Positions 5,417 through 12,881 are shown, counted from the first letter of the stretch. The stretch: DNA of 56,134 bases from Alphaproteobacteria bacterium (GCA_037138055.1 JBAXJB010000006.1:1-56134), one strand, 5' to 3'. Numbers and translations are program-made. Notes: generated by a model not told the origin, from the sequence alone.

Positions 5417-5430
5417 CCACCCAAGATTTT

Positions 5431-5463
5431 TTTACTTTTTGTTAACTTTCTTACCTCTAGACT
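5431..5463 (+). promoter_or_regulatory. Near-consensus CtrA box plus -10-like hexamer upstream of array gene 1
   Basis: TTTA-N7-TTAAC at 5431-5446; TAGACT at 5458-5463. Confidence 0.35.
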
Positions 5464-5512
5464 TTCTTTAGGCAGGTATTTTTCCGCTTACTTTTTGAAG
5501 GGAGTTTACAAG

Positions 5513-6040
5513 ATGAAATTATTAAAAAATTTAGCACTTTTAGTGTGCATGCAAATACCTATCACTTTTGCGATGGAAGGGGTTGCGATTCAAGAAATTG
5601 ATGCTGAACCTGCAGCTAGTGGTGGTGCAGGAATAACTACGGATGCTTTTGCTTCTATGGACCCTCTTGGTAAAGCAATTGAAGAAATTGCAGAGCCAAA
5701 CGTTGGCGTTGTTTTGGGATTTATTATGGGGTCAGATGGTCAGCCTGTGCCAGTCATTAAACAGTATACTAAGCGTGATATTTTGGCAGGATTAGAGAAT
5801 ATAAATACAGGCACAAGCATACTGATTGAGTTATTAAAAACTGAACAGCCAGACATCCCGCGCATAGTGAGCGCGCTATCAACTATTACAGGAAAGGATG
5901 TTCTTACATTGAAACCGCATCTTTTGCAGGTTATCTGGGCTTTATACGCTCCTGAGCCTGTTATGGTAGCAGCTAATAATGTTGGAACTCCAGAGGACGA
6001 GCTTCCTCGTATTGAAGAGCTTGGTGAAGAAGACCTTTAA
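5513..6040 (+). CDS. Secreted orphan protein, array gene 1
   Basis: GGAGTTT RBS before ATG 5513; MKLLKNLALLVCMQIPITFA-ME signal peptide; acidic mature region. Confidence 0.8.
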   Translation: MKLLKNLALLVCMQIPITFAMEGVAIQEIDAEPAASGGAGITTDAFASMDPLGKAIEEIAEPNVGVVLGFIMGSDGQPVPVIKQYTKRDILAGLENINTGTSILIELLKTEQPDIPRIVSALSTITGKDVLTLKPHLLQVIWALYAPEPVMVAANNVGTPEDELPRIEELGEEDL

Positions 6041-6071
6041 AGTATGGCTAGCAGTAATTACTCCGCCCGCT

Positions 6072-6106
6072 ATACCTATAAAATTTTAGTAAAATTTTAT
6101 AGGTAT
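6072..6106. repeat. Perfect 17-bp inverted repeat with a 1-nt spacer
   Basis: ATACCTATAAAATTTTA-G-TAAAATTTTATAGGTAT. Confidence 0.85.
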
Positions 6107-6134
6107 GCATATTAGACATCCAAGACATGTTAAT

Positions 6135-6171
6135 AAAACATGTTTTCTTATGAGATTTCTTGTACCAGACT
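6135..6171 (+). promoter_or_regulatory. Array promoter module copy 1
   Basis: AAAACATGTTTT-N19-CAGACT. Confidence 0.6.
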
Positions 6172-6241
6172 TTTATTGGCAGTTATTCTGCCATGTTAAA
6201 TATTATTAATGTTCAATATTACCAATTTAGGAGTTTAGAAT

Positions 6242-7180
6242 ATGAAGGTATTAAAAGGTTTAGTGTTAACAATGTTGGTTTCTACGGCGACGATTTTTGC
6301 AATGGATGCTTCTGTTGATGGCGATTCGTTGACTACTGATGGTTTAACAACTGGTCAAACAGGTGTTAAAACTATAGGGCTTGGCACAGTAGGCGATAGT
6401 CTTGTAATAAGCGCAGATGGTGGCGTTGTTCATGACCATGGAGTAGCTGGATCTATTATTCTTGCAGACACTGTAGACCACACCTCTGTTATCGCATTAA
6501 GCTCAACCGAAGTTGCTGCTATAAGCCTTACTCGCTTAATGACTGAAGGTAGCGTTGACGAAAAAACAAGCAGTGTTCTTTCAACAGTCTTGAGCACGTT
6601 AGGCAAAGGTACCAAAGGCACTATTGATGCAATTACAGCACTTACAGGATTAACAAGTGGAAGCGAGCTAATTTCTGTTGGCGTCTTGAATACTGTTCAA
6701 TCTGTGCTTGGTGTATTAACTAGTGAAATAGCAGGAGTGCATACTTGGAAGCAAACACCAACTGGCATACTAACTGCGTATGATATTGGTAGCGATGTAA
6801 GTGCTGATTCAGAAGGAAGCACTGTGTTTTCTCTGACAGTAAATGAAGTAGTAAAAATTGAAGCGTCTCGTTCGATTACAGATTTAGCGACAATATTAAA
6901 TATATTTAATCCTTTCACTTTGTCTGCAACAACGGAGCAGCTTACAAGTGTTATAGATAGCGTTGCTGGCACTTATGATGCATTTAGTTCTTTAGTAGGT
7001 TCTGCAACTTCTGGATTGGTTGATTCAGATGATGATACAGGAACTCATGGTGGTACAGTTGATGACGTATCTTCAAGTGTTATGGGATTAGGTATTGGAA
7101 CAAGTGGTCTTCAAAGGCAAAGCACTGTTGCTGGTGGAGTAAATGAAGAAAGCAATGTTGACGAAGGCGATCTTTCATAA
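6242..7180 (+). CDS. Secreted orphan protein, array gene 2 (Thr/Ser/Gly/Val/Asp-rich)
   Basis: TTAGGAGTTTAGAAT RBS; MKVLKGLVLTMLVSTATIFA-MD signal peptide; 312-aa ORF. Confidence 0.85.
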   Translation: MKVLKGLVLTMLVSTATIFAMDASVDGDSLTTDGLTTGQTGVKTIGLGTVGDSLVISADGGVVHDHGVAGSIILADTVDHTSVIALSSTEVAAISLTRLMTEGSVDEKTSSVLSTVLSTLGKGTKGTIDAITALTGLTSGSELISVGVLNTVQSVLGVLTSEIAGVHTWKQTPTGILTAYDIGSDVSADSEGSTVFSLTVNEVVKIEASRSITDLATILNIFNPFTLSATTEQLTSVIDSVAGTYDAFSSLVGSATSGLVDSDDDTGTHGGTVDDVSSSVMGLGIGTSGLQRQSTVAGGVNEESNVDEGDLS

Positions 7181-7201
7181 TTAACTAAACTAAGTAACGA
7201 C

Positions 7202-10647: not shown

Positions 10648-10685
10648 ATAAGAAATAAGCTAATTGTAAGAGAAAGATCTAAAAA

Positions 10686-11252
10686 ATGAAGTGTTTGAAA
10701 GGCTTGTTATCAATAGGATTAGCATCAACATTTTTTGCAGCTGATAGGTATGCTGTGGGTGGTGATATATCAGATGTAAGTGGTGATGAAGGCGAGGTTG
10801 CGCAAATAACGCAGGGTGCACCAGTGATAAAAGGAAGGAAGACTTTGGTAATTGCGAATGAAGCTGCTTTTGCTAGTTCTTACACAAACTTAACAGCTGA
10901 TGTATTAAAGGAAGTTGCAATTCAAACTGCTAAAAATAAGCTATTGAAAATTAAATCAGAACTAGATTTGACTGTGTGGGGATCTGTTGAAGAGGTTTTG
11001 TTTACAAATGATCCGAAGGCAATTATAAGACTGCTTGATGAAGTGTCTTCTAAAAGAGTTGGTGGTCCTGCTATTGGCGCACAAAGAAATGAGAGTCTAC
11101 AGCAGGGAATTTCATCTATTGCTAGAAATCTTAGCAAGGCAACATTATCGCCTTCGAAGAGAACATATTTGATGGATAGTGATAGCGTAACTGCAGAAAA
11201 ATTTGAAGGTAGTCCAGATTCTGTTTCTGGTGCTGAACATATCGAAGGTTGA
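10686..11252 (+). CDS. Secreted orphan protein, array gene 7
   Basis: MKCLKGLLSIGLASTFFA-AD signal peptide. Confidence 0.8.
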   Translation: MKCLKGLLSIGLASTFFAADRYAVGGDISDVSGDEGEVAQITQGAPVIKGRKTLVIANEAAFASSYTNLTADVLKEVAIQTAKNKLLKIKSELDLTVWGSVEEVLFTNDPKAIIRLLDEVSSKRVGGPAIGAQRNESLQQGISSIARNLSKATLSPSKRTYLMDSDSVTAEKFEGSPDSVSGAEHIEG

Positions 11253-11278
11253 CTTCTTTGCATAACAACAATGCGAAA

Positions 11279-11315
11279 AAAACATGTTTTTTCCAGAAAA
11301 TTTTTAATACACACT
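11279..11315 (+). promoter_or_regulatory. Array promoter module copy 5
   Basis: AAAACATGTTTT-N19-CACACT. Confidence 0.6.
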
Positions 11316-11368
11316 TCTATATGCGATTGTTTTGCGTATAAAAATTCATTTTTTAAAGAGGCTAGAAC

Positions 11369-11944
11369 ATGAAGTTACTTAGGAATTTGGCACTTACGCT
11401 ATTAGCTGCCAAAGTTGTGATTTTTTCAGGATTATTTTGTGGAGAATTTTTGGAACAAGATGTTGCAGAAATGAAAAGCGCAGAAGCTCCTCTTTCGTGC
11501 TGTATCTCAGTTAAAACTTGTGAGTTATTAGATGATAATCTCTCTAATTCTTTGATTGTGCAGTACAGGTCATGTCGAGAATTGAAGCAGTTGTTTATCA
11601 TTTTTCTCACAAATAATGGAACGCAATATTCATGGTGGAATGCATCTCACTTAATTGCTAATTCCCATGATTTGCCACTGACTGCTGGAATTAAGGAAGT
11701 TAAGGTAATTTCTGACGCAGAAGAAAAAAAATCAGGTTTTAGTTCAAGGAGAGCAACGCAAGATTTAGCTCAATATTGGGATGAAGAAGTGGAAGAAGTG
11801 GAAGAAAAACCTGCTCCTCCTCTCTCTATTACAATTCCACCAGTTTCAGATGGAAGAGTGCGTGGTTCCTCAAGCGATTGGTATATAGGCCGTTCACCAA
11901 CATCGCCAAATAGAGGGTGGGCTTCACCAGTACTTGTCAATTGA
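11369..11944 (+). CDS. Secreted orphan protein, array gene 8
   Basis: GAGG RBS; MKLLRNLALTLLAAKVVIFS-G; Ser/Pro-rich C-terminus. Confidence 0.75.
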   Translation: MKLLRNLALTLLAAKVVIFSGLFCGEFLEQDVAEMKSAEAPLSCCISVKTCELLDDNLSNSLIVQYRSCRELKQLFIIFLTNNGTQYSWWNASHLIANSHDLPLTAGIKEVKVISDAEEKKSGFSSRRATQDLAQYWDEEVEEVEEKPAPPLSITIPPVSDGRVRGSSSDWYIGRSPTSPNRGWASPVLVN

Positions 11945-11975
11945 AAGCACAATATAAAATTAGGATTTTTAAAAA

Positions 11976-12467
11976 ATGAAGTACTTTAAAAAATTGATGC
12001 TAGTGGCTCTATTATCAAACTTTATGATTTTTGCTGAAGATAAATCACTTTTTGATGATAGTTATTTAATAAAACGTGCTGCTTCTTCGAATTTTGTATC
12101 ACAACAGCTTCCAGCATTTTTTGGATATGCGTCTTTTAGCTATGGCTCAGTTTTTGGTGTGCTTTATTTTATGTACGAGACGGTATCTGAAAGTTTTTAT
12201 GCAAGAGTGATGAGTCTTAGTTTTGGGAGGAGGCCTGCAAACATTAAAAGAACTGGTGGAAATTTGCACCTACCTGATTTGGATACTAATGTTCTTACCC
12301 TTACCCTTACCCTTCCTGAAGATTGCAGCCGCCAGCCTACATTGTCTCCTTGCTTTTTTATAGGGTCTCCGCTTTCATCTCCTCCTTCATCTCCGCAGCG
12401 TCCAGGGGTTCGTAAACGTGCTCTTAGTAACTCTTACATGACGAATGTTGATCTATTAAAACAATAA
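11976..12467 (+). CDS. Secreted orphan protein, array gene 9
   Basis: TAGGA RBS; MKYFKKLMLVALLSNFMIFA-ED; Ser/Pro-rich C-terminus. Confidence 0.75.
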   Translation: MKYFKKLMLVALLSNFMIFAEDKSLFDDSYLIKRAASSNFVSQQLPAFFGYASFSYGSVFGVLYFMYETVSESFYARVMSLSFGRRPANIKRTGGNLHLPDLDTNVLTLTLTLPEDCSRQPTLSPCFFIGSPLSSPPSSPQRPGVRKRALSNSYMTNVDLLKQ

Positions 12468-12554
12468 AAAAATTTAAATTGGAATTAAATTATGGTATAT
12501 ATCTTGACTTTGTGAACCCCAAACAATGGGAATTTTTTTATAGGAGTTGAGAAT

Positions 12555-12881
12555 ATGAATTATCTAAAAACATTAATGCTAATAGTGGTGGTGGCGGTAT
12601 CTAATGCATCTGAGTCGACTGGGCTTGAGGAATTAATGGGAAATATGCATGTTTCTTCTGGTTGGGTTGGTCGCGCTAAAGCCATATTGCCAACGGTTCC
12701 TTGTTCTGATGAACTGCGTGTGGAAATTCAATCAATGATCGCAACACTACGTTCTAATCCTTCTGAAGCGCTTGCAGCAATGGTAACTTGGTTTGGTGTT
12801 TTTAGTGACGCTGAACCAAATACAGATGGAGATCATTTTAAAACCGCAGTGCGTTCTATTTTTCATCCTGCTGTTTCATAA
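12555..12881 (+). CDS. Secreted orphan protein, array gene 10
   Basis: TAGGAGTTGAGAAT RBS; MNYLKTLMLIVVVAVSNA-SE. Confidence 0.75.
   Translation: MNYLKTLMLIVVVAVSNASESTGLEELMGNMHVSSGWVGRAKAILPTVPCSDELRVEIQSMIATLRSNPSEALAAMVTWFGVFSDAEPNTDGDHFKTAVRSIFHPAVS

Follow-up and report, generated by a model that had tools for sequence, protein, structure and literature searches.

The window, a stretch of 56,134 nucleotides from an alphaproteobacterial contig (GCA_037138055.1, JBAXJB010000006.1), carries ten co-oriented ORFs on the + strand between positions 5513 and 12881, all at the starts that a sequence-only reading of this DNA had given. The N-terminus of all ten has the form M-[KN]-x-[LF]-[KR]-x-[LS], with a hydrophobic core after it, which bears out the common pattern described in that reading, and the motif GGAGTT(T/G) lies 6-8 nt upstream of the ATG in seven genes (g1-g6 and g10), the number it had counted. 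The first four genes were recognized by ORF, RBS and N-terminus. An exported acidic protein of 175 aa is encoded by g1 (5513-6040); the gene is broken in three close genomes (G002, G006 and G003) and is full-length and unbroken on metagenome contigs L041 (94%), L040 and L043 (60-61%). The product of g2 (6242-7180, 312 aa), also supported by RNA-library contigs, is an exported protein rich in T, S, G, V and D, with homologues in 28 clusters (37-100% identity) in which the signal peptide is almost invariant. Both g3 (7361-7996, 211 aa) and g4 (8124-8666, 180 aa) encode exported acidic proteins. A search of 1.84 billion representatives with g3 returned six matches, five of them orthologues, and g4 is the most conserved + strand member of the array (dN/dS 0.09-0.43; nine clusters, each with at least 58% identity).

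The second half of the array begins with g5 (9454-9930), an exported acidic protein of 158 aa identified by ORF and N-terminus and present or absent as a whole unit. It is followed by g6 (10123-10581), an exported acidic protein of 152 aa supported by ORF, RBS, N-terminus and rates, and by g7 (10686-11252), an exported protein of 188 aa without the GGAGTT RBS, identified by ORF and N-terminus, with eight homologue clusters of at least 58% identity each. The same two features identify g8 (11369-11944), an exported protein of 191 aa with a Pro/Ser-rich C-terminus. The exported basic protein g9 (11976-12467, 163 aa; ORF, N-terminus, rates) starts 31 nt past g8, and the two genes are therefore probably co-transcribed. 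The last gene, g10 (12555-12881, 108 aa; ORF, RBS, N-terminus, rates), encodes an exported protein with a 44% identical homologue in G005. Two further genes were absent from the sequence-only reading. One, gm, lies within the array on the minus strand (8730-9230) and was identified by its ORF and conservation; its exported product is basic and Lys-rich and contains four invariant Cys, and the gene is conserved (dN/dS 0.07-0.14) and is also found within the arrays of distant same-genus species. The other, past lysS on the + strand (15509-15916), is a probable eleventh family member of 135 aa with the N-terminus MNYLNKLLLVVLTSLPLLVA-MD; it scored E 0.0017 with the signal-peptide HMM described below and had no match in Pfam.

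The N-termini resemble Sec signal peptides, and all ten have a positively charged start and a hydrophobic core. Over residues 7-20, Kyte-Doolittle hydrophobicity exceeds the cut of 1.5 in nine and is slightly under it in g7. For a putative signal peptidase I site, inspection by eye found that in eight proteins a small -1 residue precedes acidic residues, g4 and g8 being less clear, and Ala at -1 in eight; the cleavage regions read TFA-ME, IFA-MD, VCA-SD, AVA-GD, FFA-AD, IFA-ED and SNA-SE. The canonical lipobox [LVI][ASTVI][GAS]C was absent from the ten signal peptides on inspection. A Cys close to the cleavage region occurs in g5 alone (V-V-C-A), where the -1 position holds a non-canonical residue. 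The mature proteins are mostly acidic, as had been stated, with a pI of 4.05-5.4 in nine and of 9.3 in the basic g9. Across the genome (1.68 Mb), 20 ORFs match the N-terminal motif with a hydrophobic core and nine of these fall inside the 7.5-kb array; this clustering is not due to chance. The hydrophobicity cut alone kept g7 out of the set of 20. We also built an HMM from the first 24 residues of 47 array members of other genomes, orthologues of the window genes included, and with it the ten window genes, at E values from 1e-9 to 9e-5, outranked all others of the 11,915 candidate N-termini.

The similarity between genes extends upstream of the coding sequence and ends soon after the signal peptide. 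Ungapped identity across the ten genes peaks at 56-69% at -15..+21, and is about 29% past +66 and 24-33% upstream of -30. An independent repeat search recovered two repeats: one of RBS and signal peptide, with 60-85% identity over 52-81 nt among its 5-6 copies, and one of the promoter module, present four times (63-81% identity). The RBS+ATG pattern has four matches in the genome, every one within the array. In several genes a promoter module places the palindrome AAACATGTTT some 90 nt ahead of the ATG. Repeat and alignment evidence places these modules, all on the + strand, upstream of g2 (6126-6185, palindrome at 6136-6145), g3 (7259-7318, palindrome at 7269-7278), g6 (10023-10082, palindrome degenerate) and g8 (11270-11329, palindrome at 11280-11289), and the repeat search located a remnant upstream of g5 (9350-9376, +) that retains AAACATCTTT with one mismatch. 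Putative g2 promoter hexamers are TTGTAC (-35, 6161-6166) and TATTCT (-10, 6184-6189). The exact 11-mer AAAACATGTTT has six sites in the 1.68 Mb, three of them in the array. In eight other same-genus genomes, distant ones included, array ATGs are preceded at 89-108 nt by the 10-mer AAACATGTTT (at most one mismatch). The array genes may be co-regulated through the palindrome. Several genes also have their own terminators, as the earlier reading held: terminator-like hairpins on the + strand lie 3' of g2 (7200-7239), g3 (8017-8046), g5 (9972-10004) and g10 (12895-12919). Identity profile, alignment and repeat search thus agree with the proposal that promoter, RBS and signal peptide form a recurrent, recognizable unit.

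RNA-library contigs were found on g2, g5 and gm. In three libraries from three studies (X15, X16 and X17), g2 forms its own contig of about 1 kb running from 6195/6198 to 7154/7189, and no other gene of the examined stretch is spanned in full by a long RNA-library contig. The depth of the contigs in X16 and X17 was 25-30 over g2 against 2-3 over the flanks, with the caveat that neither the ends nor the levels of transcripts can be proven from such contigs. Their starts at 6195-6198 lie just past the putative g2 promoter. The RNA-covered variant of g2 carries patches replaced in frame (99 to 90 nt and 119 to 134 nt).

Beyond the signal peptide, the sequence-only reading had detected no similarity between the proteins, and four types of comparison of the mature parts concur. 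The best blastp hit among the ten was the pair g2-g3, at a non-significant E of 0.002 against a very small database, Smith-Waterman scores against shuffles for 55 pairs gave a lowest p of 0.0029 that is non-significant once corrected, profile-profile comparison with orthologue profiles (hhalign) found no significant similarity, and a Gibbs motif search against shuffles gave z values of 1.7, 0.1 and -0.2. Comparison of the paralogue bodies in other frames yielded no match either. The array proteins had no match in Pfam, NCBIfam, PHROGs, PADLOC or PDB, the Pfam and NCBIfam searches revealing no eukaryote-like domain or known effector family, and no homologues beyond the lineage were found for g2 (28 clusters), g3 (five orthologue clusters), g4 (nine) or g7 (eight).

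The interval bounded by the PCu(A)C gene and lysS, which the earlier reading had singled out for comparison in related genomes, is hypervariable. The array occupies this site in G002, G006 and G003, and incomplete contigs of G004 and G010 are consistent with the same location. Among relatives with the same site, LysS is 96-99.6% identical, against 27-97% for the array proteins. The g5 unit (9297-10037) is missing from G002, G006 and G003, with the junction at the edge of a promoter module, and is present in metagenome contig L040 and run X2. In G006, tandem duplication of 5919-6743 created a g2N::g1C chimera; in G002, a frameshift in g1 leaves a signal peptide with a novel out-of-frame tail; and L040 has an additional signal-peptide gene ahead of lysS. 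More distant species have 0, 1.6, 2.7 or 7 kb at the site, with signal-peptide genes that differ from those of the window but have the same type of N-terminus, and in G008, of the same genus, the array is lacking and lysS directly adjoins the PCu(A)C gene. Features of a mobile island were not found in the window genome: positions 1-20000 contain no tRNA, the five genomic matches to the recombinase family PF00589 include none on the contig of the array, and the GC content of the array (0.36-0.40) is similar to that of its surroundings. The reported absence of an adjacent integrase or transposase therefore holds for this genome, where neither recombinase nor tRNA lies beside the array. In the metagenome variant L040, an IS4/5 transposase lies on the left side of the array. 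The sequence-only reading had named three findings that would speak against it (a uniform family of mature parts, 5' modules resembling random DNA and an identical array across relatives), and none of them was observed.

Relative to G002 and G006, dS was 0.09-0.56 for the array and 0.21-0.35 for the flanks, whereas dN/dS reached 0.45-0.85 for g2, g3 and g6-g9 against 0.01-0.15 for the flanks. Values were 0.16-0.50 for g10, 0.67-0.85 for g8 and 0.32-0.52 for the concatenated signal-peptide codons. Because dN/dS is below 1 everywhere in the array, positive selection is not demonstrated, and relaxed constraint alone could explain these rates. Length is divisible by three for 66 of 68 coding indels and for none of 20 intergenic ones, in comparisons that are not phylogenetically independent, and the ORFs remain open across relatives. 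At the larger distance between G003 and G000 (dS about 0.6-1.5), the position-equivalent g3, g7 and g8 keep significant similarity, and two of the five strongly diverged pairs, g2 (p 0.13) and g6 (p 0.14), do not. Replacement of the g2 and g6 bodies is thus conceivable from these comparisons. The C-terminal tail motif of g2 and the Cys motif of g6 are retained in the diverged position equivalents, and a scan of metagenome contigs with the g2 signal-peptide coding sequence found five contigs, all with g2-type cargo.

These results suggest that the array is probably a lineage-restricted (genus-level) family of tandem paralogs encoding Sec-exported, mostly acidic proteins, which evolves by birth and death and by fast, frame-preserving divergence. 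Most genes would be separate transcription units, each with a homologous promoter module whose AAACATGTTT palindrome keeps a fixed spacing of about 90 nt to the ATG, followed by the RBS AGGAGTT, the signal peptide and the body, and often by a terminator. Birth and death was seen to involve tandem segmental duplication, chimeras, frameshift decay and the gain or loss of entire units at repeated promoter modules. Mature parts diverge very quickly with the reading frame kept, their bodies probably being weakly constrained or diversifying, and the 5' module would still be recognizable because stronger purifying selection acts on it for common regulation, for translation start and for Sec targeting. 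We infer that the genes share common ancestry over their whole length, bodies included.

The earlier reading had offered cargo that is "swapped or evolving very fast", and fast evolution is the better supported of the two, with flank-like dS and raised dN. If the promoter-RBS-signal-peptide module had duplicated or recombined and unrelated coding sequences, captured or derived from non-coding or out-of-frame DNA, had repeatedly been placed behind it, the array would be a nursery for new exported proteins. The mutually unrecognizable mature parts, the non-significant g2 and g6 pairs, the out-of-frame tail of g1 in G002, the G006 chimera and the gain or loss of g5 at a module edge all agree with such a process. 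However, the duplication breakpoints in G006 lie within gene bodies rather than 5' modules, most position-equivalent genes are still homologous at a dS like that of the flanks, and all five contigs with the g2-type signal peptide keep the g2-type cargo. Blastn homology between G000 and G003 stops 58-70 nt into g2, g3, g6 and g8, at the signal-peptide boundary, but such a break is equally expected where constraint ends. There is also no possible donor in the form of a body homologue outside the lineage, no out-of-frame match among paralogue bodies and no recombinase on the contig. The sequence evidence favours rapid change of vertically inherited genes, and repeated swapping appears quite improbable.

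It is less easy to dismiss that the same anatomy and evolution produce ordinary envelope or periplasmic components, such as acidic, largely disordered periplasmic or surface fillers, whose loose sequence requirements reflect relaxed constraint only and which are not directed at a host. A dN/dS below 1 throughout, acidic proteins of partly biased composition, the lack of eukaryote-like domains or known effector families in our searches and the lack of a secretion system linked to the array all suit such products, but presence/absence and decay among close relatives fit dispensable, niche-specific genes better, and the lack of the array in G008 and the in-frame replacement of patches in the RNA-covered g2 also speak against them. 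We consider this explanation unlikely. That the ORFs are decaying or spurious would account for the broken g1 in G002, G006 and G003 and for the high dN/dS of g8, but it is largely refuted by frame preservation in coding as opposed to intergenic DNA, and open frames across relatives, conserved RBS, promoter modules and terminators, and RNA-library contigs on g2, g5 and gm leave it barely credible.

The designation "undescribed system" was an overstatement, since the pattern has known analogues. Tandem, fast-evolving surface or secreted paralogues include the p28/OMP-1 genes of Ehrlichia and Anaplasma, vlp/vsp of Mycoplasma and the ssl and lpl clusters of Staphylococcus, and eukaryotic effector clusters and conotoxins combine a conserved signal with a hypervariable mature part. 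These families share tandem duplication, birth and death, a conserved export signal and a fast-changing body. Their mature parts, however, are mostly still homologous or repeat-based, whereas the array bodies lack paralogue similarity, and several use dedicated switching mechanisms, of which no machinery was seen at the array. Integron cassettes likewise place co-oriented, unrelated small ORFs in a row at one chromosomal site, but the repeat of the array is 5' (promoter, RBS and signal peptide) rather than a 3' attC and each gene has its own promoter; an integron cassette array is ruled against by the zero PF00589 integrase matches on the contig. The Erp proteins of Borrelia (OspE/OspF/Elp) are host-interface proteins with strongly different mature parts. 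As in that family, an upstream region and a leader peptide are common to the array paralogues, in an architectural analogy only: the array has no sequence relationship to Erp in Pfam, NCBIfam or PHROGs searches. Erps are lipoproteins encoded on cp32 prophage plasmids and scattered over replicons, whereas the array is chromosomal, at a single tandem site between housekeeping genes, with no canonical lipobox on inspection and no phage context. Similar promoter sequences and an upstream homology box for the OspE paralogues and OspF of Borrelia burgdorferi are described in a published account (PMC7002432).

The source is a freshwater bacterium that probably associates with protists, its host and intracellular lifestyle being taken from the labels of relatives only. 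These relatives are labelled as Ca. Finniella and Ca. Odyssella MAGs, Paracaedibacteraceae-like protist symbionts. Elsewhere in the genome are two secretins, a T2SS-F-like gene and a T6SS sheath gene, none linked to the array. In the Paracaedibacter-like endosymbiont Ca. Bodocaedibacter vickermanii, 158 CDS with signal peptides include 105 uncharacterised ones confined to two genomes, which its authors proposed as possible host-manipulating factors (PMC8163844). The bacterial group and the host-factor idea are in common with the array; the available parts of that paper describe no tandem array, shared 5' module or rate analysis, and its supplementary tables may list similar genes. The array proteins would act at the cell envelope or the host interface; a role at the host interface itself is plausible, although we propose it tentatively. 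A shared start region joined to fast-changing bodies is a pattern familiar from other host-associated microbes.

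Between the PCu(A)C copper-chaperone gene (Pfam E 1.2e-15; stop at 5416) and the class I lysS gene at 13013, we found ten plus-strand ORFs of 108-312 aa and one minus-strand ORF. The ten plus-strand genes span 5513-12881 and are referred to here as g1 to g10 (starts at 5513, 6242, 7361, 8124, 9454, 10123, 10686, 11369, 11976 and 12555). The sequence-only reading had described them as co-oriented genes with a common N-terminal type, a ribosome-binding site shared by seven of them and mostly acidic products, and all of this was recovered: every one of the ten begins with M-K/N-x-L/F-K/R-x-L/S followed by a hydrophobic core, GGAGTT(T/G) immediately precedes the ATG in seven, and the mature pI is 4.05-5.4 in nine, g9 being the basic exception. 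Across the 1.68-Mb assembly, 20 ORFs match the N-terminal motif and nine of these lie in the array. When 11,915 candidate N-termini were ranked with a signal-peptide HMM built from the first 24 residues of 47 members from other genomes, the ten genes of the window took the top ranks. The N-terminal type is therefore specific to the array locus within this assembly. The next-ranked matches include a 135-aa plus-strand ORF at 15509-15916, past lysS and a DUF218-like gene, with an N-terminus of the form …LLVA-MD and a CCAGACTT stretch upstream; it is probably an eleventh member of the family, located outside the array coordinates.

The nucleotide similarity among the ten genes is concentrated around the start codon. 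Anchored at the ATG, mean pairwise identity is 56% at -15..0 and 69% at 0..+21, drops to ~46% up to +66 and to ~29% past +66, and is 24-33% upstream of -30. Gapped alignment and a repeat finder identified a homologous promoter module 5' of g2, g3, g6 and g8, with a remnant at g5. The identity peak and the promoter modules show that the recognisable repeat is the 5' unit, as had been proposed, and terminator-like hairpins 3' of g2, g3, g5 and g10 agree with the view that several genes have their own terminators. An AT-rich near-perfect inverted repeat 3' of g1 (6072-6107), which appears as inverted blastn matches in relatives, may be a terminator lacking a T-run. In the g5 leader, a hairpin with a GC stem and a T-run after it (9404-9421), placed between the promoter-module remnant and the ribosome-binding site, might act as an attenuator or a read-through terminator. 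We detected no consensus RNA structure across the ten -35..+66 modules and no Rfam match within 5300-13100.

The promoter module holds the palindrome AAACATGTTT. The exact 11-mer AAAACATGTTT occurs at six sites of the genome, three of them in the array, and in eight other genomes of the genus the 10-mer core (at most one mismatch) precedes the start codons of array genes by 89-108 nt. This spacing is also kept in distant species of the genus whose array genes are otherwise different. The fixed distance to start codons across these genomes suggests that the palindrome is a functional cis element, and we infer that it would be the operator of a shared regulator. The other sites of the palindrome in the genome, on contigs C8, C14 and C51, present no context comparable to the array. 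The exact copy at ~40323-40429 of C8, outside the window, is kept with the same surrounding sequence in three same-genus genomes (G002, G004 and G006). Small ORFs without an assigned function flank it, and no signal-peptide gene is linked to it. A loose promoter pattern, CAGACTT, was dropped as unspecific (115 genome matches).

Past the signal peptide, the sequence-only reading had reported no detectable similarity, and our searches led to the same result. No significant similarity was found among the mature parts by blastp, by Smith-Waterman comparison of 55 pairs against window shuffles (lowest p 0.0029, for g2-g3, not significant once corrected), or by comparing orthologue profiles, shallow or deeper, with one another; hhalign with the deeper profiles of g2 (28 sequences) and of g4 (11 sequences) likewise linked no paralogue groups. 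A "helix-(N/D)-P-helix" motif seen by eye in g1, g3, g5, g7 and g10 was abandoned after a Gibbs motif search against 20 shuffles per width (z of 1.7, 0.1 and -0.2). Besides the g2-g3 pair, two weak hints of kinship fell below significance: a 20-nt stretch (RLLNQ) common to g4 and g5, and the Pro/Ser-rich tails of g8 and g9, which also gave the best profile match among window genes, still not significant. The tails of g8 and g9 (11369-12467) carry SP/TP-type motifs, and the mature part of g9 has a hydrophobic stretch.

The array proteins had no match in Pfam, NCBIfam, PHROG, PADLOC or PDB; searched against PDB sequences, the g4 profile returned 0 matches, and the ESM Atlas gave no usable match for g4 or for the product of the minus-strand gene. 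Large-database searches with g2, g3, g4 and g7 retrieved close relatives only: nine clusters for g4 and eight for g7, all of at least 58% identity, 28 clusters for g2 (37-100% identity) and, among 1.84 billion representatives, five orthologue clusters plus one apparently repeat-inflated match for g3. We set aside the latter, a 1135-aa database protein with 11 repeat stretches (P0043, E 2.9e-5) whose own Pfam matches are likewise repeat-driven.

We then compared the locus across thirteen same-genus genomes. In close genomes (lysS 96-99.6% identical) the array is syntenic, but identity between its proteins is no more than 27-97%. At synonymous sites, the array genes and the flanks have diverged to a similar extent; dN/dS is 0.45-0.85 for g2, g3 and g6-g9, 0.16-0.50 for g10, 0.09-0.43 for g4 and 0.01-0.15 for flank genes. 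Signal-peptide codons are under more constraint than the bodies (concatenated dN/dS 0.32-0.52), and the g2 signal peptide is nearly invariant over the 28 clusters. Of 68 indels within genes, 66 have a length divisible by three, versus 0 of 20 in intergenic spacers, these counts being non-independent as some indels are common to relatives. This indicates that the reading frames are under selection while the sequence changes fast.

Gene content at the site is hypervariable between relatives. The g5 unit, with its module and terminator (9297-10037), is missing from the close genomes G002, G006 and G003, and the junction falls at the edge of the promoter module. In these same genomes g1 is frameshifted or partly deleted, and in G006 a tandem duplication of 5919-6743 has created a chimera of the g2 N-terminus and the g1 C-terminus. 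A metagenome contig with a variant of the locus (L040) carries an additional 103-aa signal-peptide gene between g10 and lysS (13050-13361) and an IS4/5-family transposase (DUF4096 + DDE_Tnp_1; 4657-5417) directly left of g1, at the place of the PCu(A)C gene. More distant species have nothing (G008), 1.6 kb (G009), 2.7 kb (G011) or 7 kb (G005) at the site, with genes of the same N-terminal type and different bodies. In G009, the place of an array between lysS and the PCu(A)C gene is taken by a single 486-aa minus-strand ORF (contig L023, 15385-16845), in which the N-terminal stretch, as listed, closes with a long run of serines. Outside the genus the neighbours of lysS differ, and no upstream neighbour was common to the eight genomes compared, so that no ancestral state can be derived from them.

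The bodies had been proposed to be either swapped or evolving very fast. Relative to G003 (flank dS 0.56-1.45), blastn homology is retained in the upstream and signal-peptide blocks of g2, g3, g6 and g8 and ends right after them. Position-equivalent proteins of the two genomes keep significant similarity for g3, g7 and g8, and show none for g2 (p 0.13) and g6 (p 0.14); g2 retains a C-terminal TSGL(Q/S)RQ tail and g6 a Cys motif. All five metagenome contigs with the g2 signal-peptide coding sequence encode g2-type bodies, and no paralogue body matched another paralogue in an alternative frame. Near-neutral, frame-preserving divergence thus suffices and replacement is unneeded: fast evolution is favoured, and swapping is possible for g2 and g6. 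Small in-gene duplications contribute to body change, as indicated by an internal direct repeat of g5 (9810-9843 / 9885-9918; AELARRQQLLNQ / AELDRRQEELN). The variant g2 seen in RNA libraries has patches replaced in frame. A more far-reaching scenario, which we regard as unlikely, centres on a portable promoter-RBS-signal peptide head for expression and export: unequal recombination, duplication of segments and frameshifts would repeatedly bring new coding sequence behind it, whether chimeric, out of frame or formerly non-coding. Exported proteins would then arise de novo in the array, which would be their nursery in a symbiont of reduced genome, and a single palindromic operator would co-regulate them.

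The minus-strand gene inside the array (8730-9230) encodes an exported basic protein that is rich in Lys, has four invariant cysteines and has no family match. Purifying selection on the gene is strong (dN/dS 0.07-0.14), and it also occurs inside the arrays of distant same-genus species, often mid-array.

Three RNA libraries from three studies, one of them made from the probable source sample, yielded contigs that cover g2, starting at 6195-6198 and ending at 7154-7189; in two libraries (X16 and X17) their depth is 25-30 on g2 versus 2-3 on flanking housekeeping genes. Since such contigs are no proof of the ends, strand or level of a transcript, and an RNA library may contain DNA, the contig start near 6195 and the proposed -35/-10 hexamers are a weak hint of a transcription start. 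Small contigs are present for g5 and the minus-strand gene. In the RNA runs and DNA run X2, g1 and 10206-13100 (at least 90% identity) are without cover, which implies neither absence nor silence. Other contigs of the assembly encode two secretins, a T2SS-F-like protein and a T6SS sheath, none of which could be tied to the array, and no VirB4-type gene was found in the 96.8%-complete assembly. The stretch is contained in runs from metagenomes of freshwater, lakes and rivers. Related contigs are labelled as MAGs of "Candidatus Finniella sp.", "Candidatus Odyssella sp." and unclassified Alphaproteobacteria, and from this taxonomy we infer a symbiotic lifestyle of the carrier.

An integron identity was rejected: unlike in integrons, the repeats are 5' rather than 3', and the contig carries no integrase, as the earlier observation of none adjacent had anticipated. 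The suggestion of an undescribed system did not hold. We classify the array as a tandem, fast-evolving family of exported proteins of an already known kind. Its architecture resembles that of the Borrelia UHB/Erp family, with its common promoter (PMC7002432) and leader followed by divergent bodies. Its biology resembles that of the signal-peptide proteins reported as lineage-specific in a Paracaedibacter-like endosymbiont (PMC8163844). A search of literature listings and selected passages turned up no account of a comparable array from this bacterial group.

To our knowledge, no Holosporales or Paracaedibacteraceae symbiont of protists has been cultured, nor have the factors by which they interact with their hosts been identified. 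In the accessible part of one review, a type VI system is named as their sole candidate factor (PMC11909080). The locus offers a small, well-delimited group of proteins that are candidates for a role in the envelope or at the host interface, with a regulatory signature (a palindrome at fixed distance), RNA-library support for one member and clear evolutionary dynamics. These results indicate that an export signal and promoter can outlast all similarity in the protein body, which is relevant to the annotation of orphan genes in MAGs.
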